Positions 8,077 through 46,611 are shown, counted from the first letter of the stretch. The stretch: DNA of 64,000 bases from an uncultured delta proteobacterium (GCA_963737905.1 CAVTUQ010000038.1:64001-128000), one strand, 5' to 3'. The notes: generated by a model from the letters alone, not told the origin. Numbers and translations: made by a program.

Positions 8077-10028
8077 ATGTCTGAATTTCAATTTGGTGGC
8101 GATGTCGTTTGGCGGCCGAGCGATGAGCTCGTCGCAGGGAGCCGGTTAAAAAAATTCATGGAGGGGCATGGCATCGCGAGCCTCGAAGAATTGCAGCGGC
8201 GCTCCACGGAGGACATCGAATGGTTCTGGACCGCCGTGCTCCGAGAGCTTGGAATTGAATTTTACGAGCCCTACGAGCGGATTCTCGATACCTCACGCGG
8301 CATTGCCTGGTCACGCTGGTGCTGCGGCGGAAAAATGAACATCGTCCATAACTGTCTGGAGAAATGGAAAGGGACGCCGGTTGCGCGTCGCGAGGCGATC
8401 CGTTGGGAAGGAGAAAATGGCGAGACTCGTACTCTCACCTACGAAGAACTGATCACGAGGTTTGCCGTTTGGCTGAACGCGCTCCAAGCGCTCGGCATGG
8501 AGAAAGGGGGATGTGGCGGCGCTCTTCATGCCCATGATGCCTGAGACCGTCGCAGCATTGTTTGCTGTGATCAAACTCGGCGGGATCATTCTTCCGTTGT
8601 TTTCCGGCTATGGCGCTGCGGCGGTGGCCGAACGCTTGCGCGACAGCGAGGCAAAGTTTCTGTTTACCGTCGATGGATTTTACCGGAGAGGTCAGCATGT
8701 ACTCCTAAAATCTGTTGCCGACGAGGCTGTTTCTGCTTCATCGGTCCAGCATGTCCTTGTTCTTAAGCGGCTTGGGATTTCGATTCCGTGGACTCCGGGC
8801 CGCGACTTGTGGTGGCATGAGGTAGTCGGGCGACAGAGCGAGGAAGCAGAAACGGAACGAACCGACGCTGAAGATCCCATGATGCTCATTTACACCTCGG
8901 GGACGACCGGCCGGCCTAAGGGCGCCGTTCACACCCACTGTGGGTTTCCGATCAAGGCCGCCCAGGACATGCTGCTTGGCTTCGATGTTCGACAAGAAGA
9001 CGTTCTTTACTGGGTGACGGACATGGGATGGATGATGGGGCCGTGGGAGGTTTTCGGCACAACCCTGCTCGGTGCGACAATGGTTCTTTACGAGGGTGCT
9101 TTGGATTTTCCCGGACCGGATCGTTTGTGGTCGCTCGTCGAGCGCCATCGGGTGAGCATTCTCGGCGTCTCGCCGACGTTGATTCGGAGTCTGATGCGTC
9201 ACGGAATCGGCCCGGCGGAGCAGCATGATCTTTCAAGCTTGCGCATCCTCGGCTCCACGGGCGAGCCTTGGAATCCCGACCCGTGGCTCTGGTATTTCCA
9301 CACCGCCGGTAAAGGACGCCTCCCGATTATCAACTATTCCGGCGGTACTGAGACTTCGGGGGGCCTGGTCATGGGGAACGTTCTCACGCCGCTCAAGCCT
9401 TGCGCTTTTTCGGGACCGGTACCCGGTATCGCTGCCGATGTTGTAGATGAGGAAGGGCTTTCTGTGCGAGGCCAGGTTGGTGAGCTCGTTGTCCGCAAGC
9501 CATGGATCGGTATGACGCGCGGGCTTCTGGAAAGATCCGGAGCGTTATTTTCAAACCTACTGGAGCCGGTTCCCCGATGTTTGGGTTCACGGCGATTGGG
9601 CTGCGGTCGATGAAGATGGCCTCTGGTACATTCTGGGTCGCTCGGACGACACGATCAAAGTCGCCGGAAAGCGACTCGGCCCCGCCGAAGTTGAGTCCGT
9701 GCTCGTCGGCCACCCGGCTGTGAGCGAAGCAGCGGCCATCGGCGTCCCTGATCCGCTCAAAGGCGAGGCTCTGGTTTGCTTCTGCGTCTTGAAGCCGGAA
9801 AGTAAGGCGAGCGAAAAGCTGCGCGAAGAATTGCGCGCGATGGTGGCCGAGCAACTTGGCAAGCCGCTCAAGCCGGAAGTCTTGAAGTTTATCGACGATC
9901 TGCCGAAGACGCGCAACGCCAAGATCATGCGGCGTATCATCCGGGCGAGTTACCTGGACCAGGACCCGGGAGATCTCTCTGCGCTAGAAAATCCGCAGAG
10001 CGTGGAGGCTGTGCGCAATGCAATATAG
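8077..10028 (+). CDS. Acetyl-CoA synthetase-like AMP-binding acyl-CoA ligase (several apparent indels)
   Basis: ACS-type N-terminus, [30 protein letters not shown] and [11 protein letters not shown] spread across three frames. Shifts near 8450-8510 and 9520. Confidence 0.85.
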
Positions 10029-10961: not shown

Positions 10962-11696
10962 CCTATCGTTCCTTTCCTACCACAAATCTCGTCAACGGCC
11001 CTTCGCAGGGTTACGATTAAACAGAACGAAGCCTCAATTGTCTCTGATGAGCAACCGTTGTGCCAGTCGAGAATCGTAACCTGGGCGGTTGACTCCTCAG
11101 CAAATTCAAAACTATACGCCGTCTCCAAGAACGAGCGGAGGGAAATTGGTCTCGAACGGAGTGTTCAAACAGATACGGTGCGTGTGGAAAAAGACACCTC
11201 TCCCATGCTCAAAGTAATCGAGGACAGTTGGATTCTCCATTTGCCTTGCCAAAAAGGCCCTCGGCCTCCTAACCATCGGCCTGAGGACGTACCTTTCCGG
11301 AAAGTCGGTGTCGCGGATCATCACAGATGTCGCAGCACTGGTTGCCCATGGGACGTCGAACAGGCCACTTCAGGGGACACGGGTTCACGGTGCTCGCCCA
11401 GTCGCTGAGCGGAAGCGTTAGCCGCCTGATTCATTTTGTAGCATATGGGGAGCAATGTAGTTTGAGATCATTGGGGGAAATCGAGGGTGTCGAACCGATC
11501 GCTATTTGGGGATCGATTCGGGATATTGCGCGGCAAGGGAAACGCTACGGGACTGGTTGTTGGCCGAAAACTGAAGGGGATGCTAGGTTCGTCTAACGAA
11601 ATAGCACCCTCAATCGAGCTGGGAAACACCGGTACGAGGCTCACGGGATCGGGAAAGTAAAAATTTAAAATCAAGGAATTTTTGGACTGGCGCACA

Positions 11697-11800
11697 TGCA
11701 GCAGCCCAAAAAACAGTTTGCGATCTGCGTTGGGAACGAAGGGGCTGAAGATCTAGAGACCAGGAAGATTTACCAGATTCTTCCCCATACGCGCACCAAG
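11697..11800 (+). pseudogene. 5' remnant of a small hypothetical protein gene
   Basis: Reads MQQPKKQFAICVGNEGAEDLETRKIYQILP, which resembles a small conserved protein family recalled from memory (FAICV.N.G..L..RKIY.ILPD). Similarity ends just before the REP-like hairpin. Confidence 0.45.
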
Positions 11801-11805
11801 ATGGG

Positions 11806-11853
11806 TGGATTCCGGCTCCCGCTAGCCCGACTGTGATCGGGTTGGCCGGAATC
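11806..11853. repeat. REP-like palindromic element, right part
   Basis: TGGATTCCGGCTCCCGCTA (18/19 identical to 10119-10137) closed by GCTAGCCCGA...TCGGGTTGGCCGGAATC. Confidence 0.65.
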
Positions 11854-42334: not shown

Positions 42335-43306
42335 CTACATGGTCAACATGACCTTGCCGAAGTGCTCGCGCCCTTCGAGATAACGCTGAGCGGCGCGGGC
42401 TTCCGCCAACGGAAAGCTTTTGCCGATCACGACTTGAAATTTTTTCTCCTGGATAAGCTTTAAAATATCGTCGAGCTGTTTGAAATCTTCCGGCTTCGAC
42501 TTTAGATAATTGGTAATCGAAAATCGCGTCGCTTTTCGACCGTCACTGAGATCCGGCAGCGGATCCGGAATCGCGCCAAAGGCGCCGCCGATGGAGAAAA
42601 GACGGCCGCCGGGCGCGAGTGCCTGCAAGCTTTTCTGAAAAACTTCGCCGCCGATCATTTCCAACACGACATCAACGCCACGATTGTTGGTGACGCGCAT
42701 GACTTCCGGCAGAAAATCGGTTTCGGAGACGTCGATGGTAACGTCGGCCCCCAGTTGTCGCAGTCTTCGACATTTCTCTTCGCTGCCGGAGGTCGCGACG
42801 ACTTTCGCGCCCAGATGCTTGGCGATTTGGATCGCGGCATTGCCGACGCCGCTGCTCCCTCCTTGCACCAGCAGCCAGTCGCCGGCTTTGAGTTTGCCGT
42901 CCGTCAACAAGCCGAACCACGCGGTAAGACATACGGTGGGCGTTGCCGCCGCCTGGGCCGAGGTGACTCCGTCGGGGACGGGCCGCGCTTCGGAGGTTTT
43001 GGCGACCGCGTATTCCGCGTAACCGCCGAGACTCGGATAGGCAACGACACGCTGGCCTGCTTGGTATTCGTTAACGCCGGCACCTAGCTTTTCGACGGTG
43101 CCGGCGAATTCGCGACCCGGAATGAGCGGGAGCGCATCGGCGGAAATACGATAGGTGCCCTTGCGCAGGCCGAGATCCGCGCGGTTCAAGGACGCCGCTT
43201 CGACTTTGATCAGAATCTCGCCCGCTTTGGGCTCGGGTACCGGGACATCTTCGTATTGGAGAGCGTCTTCCGTGGGGCCGAATTTGTGGATGCGAATGGC
43301 TTTCAT
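42335..43306 (-). CDS. NADPH:quinone oxidoreductase (zeta-crystallin/MDR family)
   Basis: MKAIRIH, LNRAD, PGREFAG, GGSSGVG, HFGKV. Confidence 0.9.
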   Translation of the reverse strand: MKAIRIHKFGPTEDALQYEDVPVPEPKAGEILIKVEAASLNRADLGLRKGTYRISADALPLIPGREFAGTVEKLGAGVNEYQAGQRVVAYPSLGGYAEYAVAKTSEARPVPDGVTSAQAAATPTVCLTAWFGLLTDGKLKAGDWLLVQGGSSGVGNAAIQIAKHLGAKVVATSGSEEKCRRLRQLGADVTIDVSETDFLPEVMRVTNNRGVDVVLEMIGGEVFQKSLQALAPGGRLFSIGGAFGAIPDPLPDLSDGRKATRFSITNYLKSKPEDFKQLDDILKLIQEKKFQVVIGKSFPLAEARAAQRYLEGREHFGKVMLTM

Positions 43307-43562
43307 CGCTTTCGCCTCCTTTAACACTGTATTGAAGAAAGCTTAGACAGGATAACGTCTCTCTGTCAACGCGGAAAAGCTAGAGCACCCGCACGATTCA
43401 CTTTGGTGCTTGCCTCGGTGGAGATAAGCGATTATCCTGATTTCAAATGAACACTAGCCAGCAACAAACCCTGTAGCCCGCCTTCACATCGTTGAAGGCA
43501 GGGTGGTCTGCCTTCTGGATAAGCGCCCCAGTAGGCATTGACCTTCTGGGGCGCTTTTAGCT

Positions 43563-43637
43563 TTGGGGATCGTCTAATTGGTAGGACATCAGACTTTGGA
43601 TCTGAGAATCCAGGTTCGACTCCTGGTCCCCGAGCCA
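43563..43637 (+). tRNA. tRNA-Gln(TTG), intact, CCA encoded
   Basis: Acceptor stem TTGGGGA/TCCCCGA, anticodon arm TCAGA-CTTTGGA-TCTGA, T arm CCAGG-TTCGACT-CCTGG, GCCA end. Confidence 0.96.
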
Positions 43638-43652
43638 TTTCTTGTTCCGTGT

Positions 43653-43693
43653 TTGGGGGTCGTCTAATCGGTAGGACATCAGACTTTGAATCT
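43653..43693 (+). tRNA. 5' half of a second, interrupted tRNA-Gln(TTG)
   Basis: TTGGGGGTCGTCTAATCGGTAGGACATCAGACTTTGAATCT, near-identical to the first tRNA, then diverges. Confidence 0.85.
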
Positions 43694-45148
43694 TGAGACC
43701 CCAAATTCTCAAGAAATTATTTGCACGCGATCAGCGAAGAATTTTGTAGTAAAATCAAACGTAAAAATAATTACTTATAAAAAGTAAACTACTTTTAAAA
43801 ACTAAATTGGAATGTTCTTTGCTTGGATCTAAAATCCACTGGTGTCACCCGGTAACAACCCGGTAACAATAGAGCAGCTGCCAACAAGCTAGATGATTAT
43901 GGCGGTCGGGTAGTGTCTGAGTTTGACCTAAAATGCTGGTCAGTCTTTGCTCGCAGAATCACGGGAATACGATAAGTTTTTTTGATCGTAATATGCTGAC
44001 AGGATAATCACTAGTTTAGAGAGCATCAATGAATCTGCCCAAGGAAGCATGGCCACTTGTCGGAGCGTGTCTGCGGCCCGCTCAACAGAACGTTAACCAT
44101 ATCTCTATCTGTTATTGATCGTCTTTAGACCAAAGGAACGCCCACTGATGCAACCGCGCAAACTCGCGCCAGCGTCCACAAGTAAGTCGATTTTCCCTTC
44201 CCGACGAGCATATTAATACGAAAAACAAGGTTCTTTTTAGCTTGGCGAAAAAGAAATCGGTTTCGTTTAATACGCTCCAGGCTCCCAAGTAGACCAAGGC
44301 GAGTGATGAAGGCTTAAGACTCGCATTGCTTATGACAGTCGTGTCGGTGAGGACAGTCGAAGCGCGATTCACTATTCCCGATATGGAGAGACCCCGGCTA
44401 TTTATCGGATGTGGATCAGGCAAAGAAAAAGAAAATGACTATGAATATCGAAGCATCTACTGGTTTGCTTGGATGGTATCTGGTGGCTTTTGGAGTAACG
44501 TTAGATCTTCACTGAAGCTATTGATAGAACTAACTCATAACTTTGTGCAATCCCGAAAATCGACGCACTATCGAAAACGTTACTCTTCAAGTTATGGAAA
44601 TTTGGGAAGAAAAATGACTCCAAATTGGACGAAGAAAAAATCAAGAACTGAATCTTCGGATGGTCGAGTTTGGACAGATTAAGTTATGCGCTGTGGTCCT
44701 CACAGTTTACAAATGTAATAAGTTACACCATTTAGTGCGCGTGCCTAGGGTTCTTACCATTGTTGATTTTCTTTTTTCCTGTAAATGTTCAGAGCGTAAC
44801 TCCAGTTCTAGCGTAGGAAAGATCTATTATCCTGTGGGTGTGGGAGCCTCCATTTATTACTCTTGCTATAGCCAAACGTGTGTCGTGTGTGTTGAGCATA
44901 CTTGCTTAGCATATTGATTTGAGAGGTAGGTTATTCAGAGTTGCGAAAGCCAACGAACGCGGGTTTTCGAAAAGTAGATTTCGAACGGCTAGATTACTGA
45001 AACCGGGAAAGGGCTAAGTTCGTTAGATTCGGGAAGCCGTTGAGCAAACCATAATTAATAAGAAACCAGCCTGGCCGAAGGTTTGAAAGTCGTGATTTCT
45101 TTTTTTCGTTGCGGCGCGCCGTGGACGACGACCCTACATAAGATAAAC
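43694..45148. mobile_element. AT-rich ~1.46-kb insert splitting the second tRNA-Gln; integrative-element remnant without an integrase
   Basis: Bounded by the two tRNA halves with AATCT at both junctions. Tandem ACCCGGTAACA x2 at 43847-43868. No recognisable intact gene. Confidence 0.75.
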
Positions 45149-45186
45149 AATCTGAAAATCTAGGTTCGAGACCTAGCCCCAAGCCA
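45149..45186 (+). tRNA. 3' half of the interrupted tRNA-Gln
   Basis: AATCTGA-AAAT-CTAGG-TTCGAGA-CCTAG-CCCCAA-GCCA completes the anticodon stem, T arm and acceptor (one C short in the C run). Confidence 0.85.
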
Positions 45187-45408
45187 TTTATACCGATCTG
45201 CAGTCCTGACGCTTAGATTTCACGTCAAGTGATCAACGCCCGTGCCTAGCCGGTAGGCGCGGCTGACGAACTCTCTTGTTTCCCAGATCCGTATTCCCAT
45301 TCGGGCCGGGCACAGGATTCCTGTAATTTGTTTTTGGACTTTTCGCGTCCTCATGTTGACGGGTGAGACGGGCTGGTAGTAGAAGAACGGTAGAGTGGAG
45401 AAGCAGTT

Positions 45409-46457
45409 ATGAGACGATCGTTTCCAGTTATCGATGCTGACGGTCATGTGATCGAGCGGGATCGTGAGTTGAGAGAATTTCTGCCGGCGCCGTATCGCGG
45501 CGTGGAAGGGAAGCGCGAGTATCCGCTCTTTTCTTGGGACGGCTGGGCGCGGGGCGCGCTGTCGCCGCATAAGCGAGAACATCCTGATGCGAAGCTCTGG
45601 ACACGATTCCTCGATGCGACGGAAATCGCCGCAACCGTGCTCTATCCCAACGACGGCCTCAATATCGGTTTGCTCCGTGATGCCGATTGGGCAGTAGCAT
45701 TAGCGCATGCCTACAACGACTGGCTGCACCATGATTTCTTAAGCGTGAGTCCTCGTTTTCGGGGCGTCGCGCTACTCGCGCCGCAAGATCCTACCGAAGC
45801 GGCCAAGGAATTGGAACGCGCGGTAGGCGACCTGGGTATGGCCGGCGGCATGTTGCCGGCAGTATTGAGTCCGATGCGCGGCTACGGGTTGCCCCAGTTC
45901 GATCCGATCTACGCGGCGGCGGAAAAACTCGACGTGCCCATCGCCGTACACGGCGGCGCCGCCGTGGAACTGGGCCTGGACCACATGCCGTCCTTTGCCG
46001 GTGTCTACCCGCTTAGCCACCCGTTTTCACAAATGCAGCAGCTCACCAGCATGATGATTCACGGCGTATTCGAGCGCTTCCCGAAATTGCGCGTCGCGTT
46101 TTTAGAAGCGGGCTGCGGCTGGGTTCCTTACCTGGCGGATCGGTTGGACGAAAGTTGGGAACACCGGATCAACCGCTGGCCGCATCCGACCAAGCGATGC
46201 CCCAGTGAGATCATGCGCGGGGGCAATCTTTACTACGCCTGTGAACAGGGAGGAAAAAACCCTTGCGACGGTGGCCGAGTTGATCGGCGGCGCGCAGCTT
46301 GCTCTGGGCGTCTGATTTTCCCCACGAGCGGCCTTGGGAAGAGTTCAGCGATGATATCGACACGTTAGTTCGCCGCCGCGATCTTCCTGAGAATCTCCCG
46401 CGGCAGATCTTGTTCGAGAACCCGTGCCGGTTCTATAAATTGAAACCGGAAGTCTAG
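45409..46457 (+). CDS. Amidohydrolase_2 family protein (apparent frameshifts near 46250-46300)
   Basis: IDADGHV, AYNDWL, VHG, LEAGCGW; LWASDFPHE...ILFENP.RFY continues in another frame to TAG 46457. Confidence 0.82.
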
Positions 46458-46611
46458 CAGGCTGCTGAAAAAGACTCATATGCTTCGTTGCGCTCAATCG
46501 CCTCGCTCCGTTAAACGTACTGATTAAGTACGCCTCCGCTCGTCGATTCTTCGCGCGCCTCGCCTCTGAGTCTTTTTGAGTAGCCTGCAACAGAATTTTT
46601 CAGCAAGTTGC
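46455..46611. mobile_element. MITE-like inverted-repeat element
   Basis: GCAGGCTGCTGAAAAAGACTCA pairs imperfectly with TGAGTCTTTTTGAGTAGCCTGC, and with a second end TTTTTCAGCAAGTTGC. Begins at the TAG stop of the upstream gene. Confidence 0.7.

Follow-up and report, generated by a model that had tools for sequence, protein, structure and literature searches.

The anticodon arm of tRNA genes is a classical attachment site (attB) for tyrosine integrases (PMC10865867, PMC4383910). As outlined in PMC10865867, 30–45 bp are usually common to both integration partners and the tRNA gene is rebuilt; similarly, Islander-type islands carry an integrase together with sequence that regenerates the gene (Hudson et al. 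2015, PMC4383910). A form of integration without tRNA rebuilding has recently been described as tRNA-dependent lysogeny in actinobacteriophages such as Fionnbharth and Gaia, with cores of 10 and 8 bp (Guerrero-Bustamante and Hatfull 2024, PMC10865867). According to the same account, these prophages carry a tyrosine integrase and a replacement tRNA of their own, and the host tRNA is essential (PMC10865867). Here, we describe a 64,000-nucleotide stretch of DNA from an uncultured delta proteobacterium (GCA_963737905.1 CAVTUQ010000038.1:64001-128000; hereafter the window, meaning this whole stretch), in which the second gene of a tandem tRNA-Gln pair is split in its anticodon arm by a 1455-bp insert, and neither junction restores a tRNA.

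The locus resembles tRNA-dependent lysogeny, as far as it is laid out in that source, in the position of the insertion at or near the anticodon loop, in the short core (10 or 8 bp there, 5 bp here), in the lack of a functional tRNA at either junction and in a same-isotype tRNA gene that covers the loss. It differs in that the insert has no integrase, phage gene or tRNA, in that the mechanism is one we infer, and in that the target is accessory and covered by host genes, including a neighbour with a changed anticodon. With Islander-type islands, as characterized in PMC4383910, it shares AT-richer foreign DNA in a tRNA gene, a direct 3' fragment that marks the far end and relatives in which the site is empty, but neither an integrase nor a gene-restoring copy is found here and 1.46 kb is far below the usual island size. 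Among the features of transposons and insertion sequences, an exact 5-bp repeat like a target-site duplication is present while inverted repeats, a transposase and further copies are not, and the complementary sequences that flank the halves of Nanoarchaeum-type split tRNAs are likewise absent.

The neighbouring gene brings in a further precedent. In yeast evolution experiments, anticodon change recurs once the corresponding tRNA gene has been deleted (Yona et al. 2013, PMC3868979), and isoacceptor change by anticodon substitution has been described under the name of tRNA anticodon shifts (Rogers and Griffiths-Jones 2014, PMC3923123). As in the shifts described there, a syntenic orthologue at our locus keeps its body and has one anticodon base altered, from CUG to UUG, with its amino-acid identity unchanged. 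In contrast to those reports, our case is a single natural event in a single bacterial lineage, in which a core UUG gene remains, so that compensation is proposed here only tentatively.

The split tRNA-Gln gene and its uninterrupted counterparts

The window is part of the 141.7-kb contig C38 of a metagenome bin (G000) that comprises 6.7 Mb in 46 contigs and is 87.5% complete with 6.7% contamination. The sole tRNA called by ARAGORN in the 64 kb is an intact tRNA-Gln(ttg), followed after a 15-nt spacer by the 5' part of a second copy, which is a 93% direct repeat of the first. An earlier note on this DNA, made from the sequence alone, had described this arrangement of an intact gene, a 15-nt spacer and a split second copy, and ARAGORN, Rfam and the comparison with relatives all confirm it. 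The main features of the locus are as follows.

43563..43637, plus strand: copy 1, intact tRNA-Gln(UUG) (ARAGORN; Rfam, 59.2 bits; tRNA sequence comparison)
43653..43693, plus strand: 5' part of copy 2, nt 1-41 of tRNA-Gln(UUG) (41/41 identical to the gene in relatives G001 and G059)
43689..43693, no strand: left AATCT repeat, tRNA nt 37-41 (sequence; native TTTGAATCTGAAAATC in G001)
43694..45148, no strand: insert, 1455 bp, 42.6% G+C, single-copy, no intact gene (composition; sequence searches)
45149..45153, no strand: right AATCT repeat (sequence)
45154..45186, plus strand: 3' part of copy 2, the remaining 33 nt (sequence; comparison with intact orthologues)

The 5' part contains the acceptor 5' strand, the D arm, the anticodon loop and 3 nt of the anticodon-stem 3' strand, and the 3' part contributes the anticodon-stem end, the variable region, the T arm, the acceptor 3' strand and CCA. 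The AATCT repeat, corresponding to the final two anticodon-loop bases and three stem bases, is a direct repeat of exactly 5 bp, as the adjoining base on each side deviates from the native TTTGAATCTGAAAATC of G001. As the earlier note had stated, neither junction rebuilds a tRNA. ARAGORN calls none at the left junction (43653 onwards), where Rfam returns a partial match lacking the T arm (24.0 bits against a gathering threshold of 29, E = 0.066), and none at the right junction.

When the two halves were joined by coordinates in a script, ARAGORN called a tRNA-Gln(ttg) with the arm TCAGA-CTTTGAA-TCTGA. The arm is the one that the earlier note had reconstructed and the joined halves do score as a tRNA, but with the acceptor stem one base upstream (U1.G72) and an additional base ahead of the D arm. 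The stem is shifted because one C is missing at 45177-45180, where the window reads CCCC and relatives G001, G021, G023 and G059 read CCCCC. The fifth C is also present in one contig from each of four soil runs (depth with the fifth C over depth at the place, 8.13/29.4, 4.57/13.4, 6.89/6.89 and 2.74/2.74). The missing C may have been lost from the genome itself or only in its assembly. The proposal that excision could regenerate the second tRNA does not fit the 3' half as assembled: one acceptor-stem C short, it would probably not give back a normal tRNA.

A search of 41 genomes of relatives, including G000 itself, gave a match in 5. None of our conclusions depends on two unpublished genomes, G012 and G048. 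In G021, which belongs to another genus, tRNA-Gln(ctg) and tRNA-Gln(ttg) stand in tandem with a 15-nt spacer as in the window, and the second gene is uninterrupted. An intact CUG and UUG tandem is also found in G059, with the genes 307 nt apart. G001, from the genus of the window, has a single gene whose nt 1-41 equal the 5' part in the window (41/41) and whose nt 42-75 equal the 3' part plus one C. In addition, contigs joining 43688 to 45149 were recovered from 2 of the 4 soil runs, with shorter sides of merely 29 and 25 bases. Because the tRNA is identical in several species and these sides are short, the contigs indicate that the intact gene is present in those soils, not which strain carries it. 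Judging from these uninterrupted sites, in tandem or single, copy 2 was once whole and was then split by an insertion, in line with the earlier note.

Two of the relatives show further rearrangements at the same place. The 307 nt between the tRNA-Gln genes of G059 (L023 1195-1501, minus strand), in place of 15 nt, are AT-rich and internally repetitive, and represent a second, independent small insertion at this locus. The sole tRNA-Gln of G023 (L007 1504-1578, minus strand) is a hybrid of a copy 1 5' part and a copy 2 3' part with an A7-C66 mismatch in the acceptor stem, as if a tandem pair had collapsed by recombination.

The insertion in the window is real and well bounded. Misassembly is unlikely because an independent metagenome contig, L018, has the identical left junction. 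Among 19 sequencing runs screened, none contained half of the sampled window words (best share 0.15). In run X1, depth inside the insert was patchy and low, with no interpretable pattern.

The insert, its relative in another lineage and their surroundings

The G+C content of the insert (42.6%) compares with 54.5% for the genome and was the lowest among the 1455-bp windows sampled on C38. Its longest open reading frame (ORF) from a start codon is at most 118 aa. None of its eight stop-to-stop ORFs matches a Pfam family at E up to 1 or is transposase-like, and a PHROG search of the ORFs reached E = 0.25-0.34 at best, with no family. A whole-genome search with PF00589 gave 12 matches, some of them broken fragments, and none of the 12 lies on C38, so that the description of the insert as integrase-less stands. 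Between 43694 and 45148 ARAGORN found no tRNA, and from 43000 to 46000 Rfam found neither group I nor group II introns at E up to 1.

Relatives at the DNA level were equally scarce. There is no second copy in the genome itself. Matches in 89 other genomes of the family and in 400 others of the phylum, the latter scored for only two candidates each, do not go beyond 24-35 nt, and phage and plasmid records gave no relative; a search of viral contigs with a 26-mer of the left arm was also negative. The insert has no terminal inverted or direct repeats, and the best match between its first 80 nt and the reverse complement of its last 80 nt was a 10-nt AT-rich stretch (p = 0.17). Overall, the insert is not a discrete mobile element but a decayed, AT-rich, single-copy, recombinase-less remnant. 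The suggestion of a non-autonomous element that could be mobilized in trans, also made in the earlier note, found no support, with no second copy in the genome, no DNA relative in the genomes, phages and plasmids searched and no terminal repeats. The following features were distinguished in the insert and in its counterpart on L018.

43694..43810, plus strand: conserved left arm, 117 nt, 27% G+C, 1 mismatch to L018 (comparison with L018)
43847..43868, plus strand: tandem 11-mer, ACCCGGTAACA twice (repeat search; one change in L018)
44145..44173, plus strand: 29-nt motif (27/29 on contig C9 at 8308-8336; 27/28 in genome G015)
44306..44722, plus strand: pseudogene of a 140-aa signal-peptide-like protein with relatives P0036 and P0037 (database match; tblastn)
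L018 603-1550: 315-aa ORF, absent from the window and its genome

L018 was obtained by scanning metagenome contigs with a 20-mer across the left junction. The scan gave two loci, one of which, L017, was rejected as a chance 20-mer match within a coding region. L018 (1778 nt) carries copy 1, the spacer, the 5' part of copy 2 (38/41 identical), the same junction as the window and the first 208 nt of the insert, corresponding to 43694-43901; past 43901 the two inserts are unrelated. No tRNA was found within the 1.48 kb of islet on L018. The earlier note had suggested comparing related genomes for an empty site or a larger, integrase-bearing version; the comparison turned up the empty sites and, in L018, the same left junction with different and longer content. 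Seven derived changes in the upstream flank are common to the window and L018, which makes their lineages sisters. Taken together, the two inserts suggest a family of islets with variable cargo.

Conservation between the two is uneven. The first 117 nt of the insert show one difference (99% identity), against identities of 86% in the host flank and 83.5% in the 83 nt of insert that follow, and the excess of the arm over the host flank is significant (Fisher p = 0.0006-0.002). The tRNA halves in the window are similarly well preserved. The window lineage has 10 private changes in 163 nt of flank, from which about 4.5 substitutions are expected in the 74 nt of the halves (hand calculation; Poisson about 0.01), and there are none. 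Either related islets entered this site separately and recently in the two lineages, or constraint acts on the arm and the halves. The arm starts with a terminator-like hairpin (43691-43714) and its RNA fold is somewhat more stable than that of shuffled sequences (z = -2.67).

The recognizable content of the window insert is limited. For one insert ORF, two relatives of 140 aa each, P0036 and P0037, were found (E = 4.5e-5 and 3.4e-4, whole database); they are encoded on metagenome contigs of 5235 and 6282 nt. The corresponding tblastn match (44314-44722) is spread across three forward frames with internal stop codons, and the ATG at 44306 is out of frame. Going by these matches, 44306-44722 is a decayed, frameshifted gene for a small secreted protein and the only recognizable cargo of the insert. 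The protein family is tiny, with three clusters; its likeness to the Rap1a immunity protein (PF18602; E = 0.026-0.044, below the cut-off; atlas score 0.88) is a weak lead. On C9, the 29-nt motif falls within a gene-poor region with only short ORFs (C9 1-12000, L051), where an integrase fragment (11252-11356) lies beside a tRNA-Met gene (11756-11832, minus strand); it looks like a further decayed island at a tRNA gene.

The 315-aa ORF of L018 is of a different kind. Its 35 relatives in the database are all unnamed and have invariant W, E, D and W residues and an RHxxVHR stretch; in 90 genomes of the family it gave only two weak matches. The proteins P0001 and P0002, encoded on metagenome contigs of 5048 and 6694 nt, are 97% and 91% identical to the ORF. 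Its model is all-helical and confident (pLDDT 87.6). We found no Pfam, PADLOC or NCBIfam family for it, no relative of solved structure by sequence or by fold (the best Foldseek hit had E = 0.76, and Csm6 chains a probability of at most 0.2) and no relative on viral contigs. An Rx4H motif, read by eye, and an atlas neighbour in the RiboL-PSP-HEPN cluster (0.91) give a lead only towards a HEPN-like nuclease; a HEPN family match was obtained for 0 of 28 members of the ORF family. At one of six genomic loci with relatives, the ORF lies about 150 nt past a tRNA-Lys gene and is itself split; no integrase was found there among the eight neighbours scanned.

Several observations concern the DNA on either side of the tRNA pair. 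Directly upstream, an element of about 155 nt (43405-43562) is conserved in seven loci from several genera. It contains three hairpins, the last of them terminator-like (43521-43556) and followed by a T run, and RNAalifold gives -50 kcal/mol with compensatory changes in 2 of 43 pairs. With no Rfam match at E up to 1, the element could be a tRNA-operon leader or an undescribed small RNA. On the other side, the adjoining amidohydrolase gene (45409-46457) has two 1-nt insertions (46247 and 46301) relative to an intact 353-aa orthologue in G001 (92% identity), and its breakage reflects either real decay or assembly indels. Just past this gene, a sequence of about 27-30 nt (46451-46480) recurs in dozens of near-identical copies across the G001 and G002 genomes and looks like a short dispersed repeat.

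Glutamine tRNA genes and a one-base anticodon change

Among the 44 tRNA genes of the genome, Gln ttg occurs twice and ctg once. The two Gln genes outside the window, ttg on contig C13 and ctg on C25, are quite different in sequence from those at the window locus, and both Gln(UUG) and Gln(CUG) are conserved at 93-100% in 5 of the 5 relatives tested. As they are kept throughout, these two genes form the core set, and the window locus is accessory. In two further genomes, G076 and G077, the accessory locus holds a single degenerate gene.

Copy 1 turned out to be something other than the plain duplicate that the earlier note had taken it for. Its position and body make it orthologous to the tRNA-Gln(CUG) of G021 and G059; its anticodon here is TTG, and it differs from that gene by C34 to T, T32 to C and A71 to G. 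In L018 the loop of copy 1 differs from that of G021 and G059 by C34 to T only, and A71 to G is common to L018 and the window. In these sister lineages, the C34-to-T change of copy 1 is a single event.

Loss of copy 2 is tolerated because three intact Gln tRNA genes remain, namely core UUG, core CUG and copy 1. Thus, the tandem neighbour invoked in the earlier note to account for this tolerance does so only in part, given the core genes elsewhere. We infer that the split copy 2 is now a pseudogene.

Origin and meaning of the insertion

We favor, with a probability of about 0.6, the explanation that a small foreign islet integrated site-specifically into the anticodon arm of the accessory tRNA-Gln(UUG) gene without rebuilding the tRNA, and later decayed. 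A crossover or staggered cut would have taken place within AATCT (nt 37-41) of the arm, and the islet would have brought no replacement 3' half, leaving the gene in two pieces. The agent would be a site-specific recombinase of the tyrosine-integrase type with a very short common core, whose gene may have been lost later or may have acted in trans. The C34-to-T change in copy 1 may have made copy 2 dispensable beforehand or compensated its loss afterwards. In favor of a recombinase over a transposase we count the anticodon-arm site, the lack of terminal inverted repeats, the single copy and the documented existence of short cores that do not rebuild their target.

A number of points weigh against site-specific integration of an islet. 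A duplication of 5 bp and nothing more is a transposase-like trace, shorter than any core in PMC10865867. We found neither a recombinase gene nor an arm-site pair or attP-like partner. The tandem 11-mer was considered as an arm-type site and rejected, having no right-end counterpart and 12 matches in the window against 10.1 expected. A candidate remnant of a replacement-tRNA 3' end at the left end of the insert (GAGACC..CCAAA) was likewise discarded as a chance-level alignment (shuffle p = 0.046; 69 of 1395 insert windows score as high), and there is thus no sign that a replacement fragment was ever present. The junctions are supported by the assembly and by L018, which covers the left junction alone and ends before the right end of its islet, 1.48 kb of which is visible. 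Finally, given the 1-nt insertions in the amidohydrolase gene, single-base indels of the assembly, the missing C included, may be errors.

The main rival explanation is transposition, in which a DDE-type or similar transposon would have inserted with a 5-bp target-site duplication and its transposase and ends would since have been lost or replaced. The exact 5-bp direct repeat, without wider identity on either side, is in keeping with this, 5 bp being a usual duplication length in several transposon families. However, terminal inverted repeats are lacking (the 10-nt AT-rich match at p = 0.17 being the best), none of the eight ORFs scanned looks like a transposase or matches a Pfam family at E up to 1, and the insert is single-copy in its genome and absent from the 89 other family and 400 other phylum genomes. 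Decay of the ends would preserve the duplication, yet decayed ends would not stay 99% conserved between two lineages. We therefore regard transposition as unlikely, while taking it seriously. We see still less reason to assume that a break in the tRNA gene took up stray foreign DNA through illegitimate joining, mediated by microhomology, without dedicated mobile-element machinery. An insert without a mobility gene or end structure and with mixed-looking content, a pseudogene and a 29-nt motif common to another decayed region, would suit such an origin; a 5-bp duplication on both sides is not normal for end joining, and conservation of the left 117 nt far exceeds that of the host flank (Fisher p = 0.0006-0.002). 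Moreover, the L018 junction is identical to the base with content that is partly different, which needs either common descent with replacement of the interior or site specificity. Capture of stray DNA is accordingly improbable.

Two other explanations would remove the insertion as an event of integration, and we give both very little weight. A chimeric contig that placed unrelated DNA inside an intact tRNA gene could be suspected from the metagenomic origin of the bin (87.5% complete, 6.7% contamination), the single-base indels in the adjoining amidohydrolase gene and the failure of all 19 screened runs to contain half of the window words. The halves nevertheless abut exactly, the 5 bp that they have in common with the insert ends are too little for an assembler to join on, and L018, an independent contig of different origin, shows the left junction together with 208 nt of insert, which makes an artefact highly improbable. 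Slimmer still is the chance that the interruption is functional, as a self-splicing intron or in a split tRNA gene that is put together at the RNA level. The anticodon-arm position and the nearly unmutated halves (0 substitutions against about 4.5 expected from the flank by hand calculation) would agree with it. On the other hand, no group I or II intron family was matched at E up to 1, and at none of the six possible cut positions left open by the repeat do the junction bases fit the splice-site consensus, be it a GUGYG start, a preceding U or a terminal G. The sequence past the 5' half shows no complementarity to that ahead of the 3' half, the insert contains a decayed protein gene, and the 5' half in L018 has 3 changes in 41 nt.

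A more far-reaching version of events, which we hold to be doubtful, is that the insert belongs to a still-active family of tiny, recombinase-less islets, each composed of the 117-nt arm and exchangeable cargo and moved in trans by a host or helper recombinase. Such islets would move into and out of one accessory tRNA-Gln anticodon arm without a replacement fragment, and the copies in the window and L018 would have been acquired separately, after the lineages diverged. If true, this would explain the arm identity of 99% against 86% in the flank, the unmutated halves and the empty-site contigs in those soils.

Site-specific integration followed by decay, our preferred explanation, makes the insertion an instance of a known general kind in its rarer, non-reconstructing form, clean but fairly ordinary. 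It opens no new mechanism, and the parts that would go beyond the ordinary are the conserved arm, the unmutated halves and the possible mobility in trans. Annotators are reminded by it that the 5' half of a tRNA gene may have its matching 3' half far away. To the recently described insertions that destroy rather than rebuild their tRNA target, the locus adds a non-phage example from an uncultured soil bacterium, and it shows how the loss of a tRNA can be absorbed, with isoacceptor genes to spare and a neighbour whose anticodon has changed by one base.

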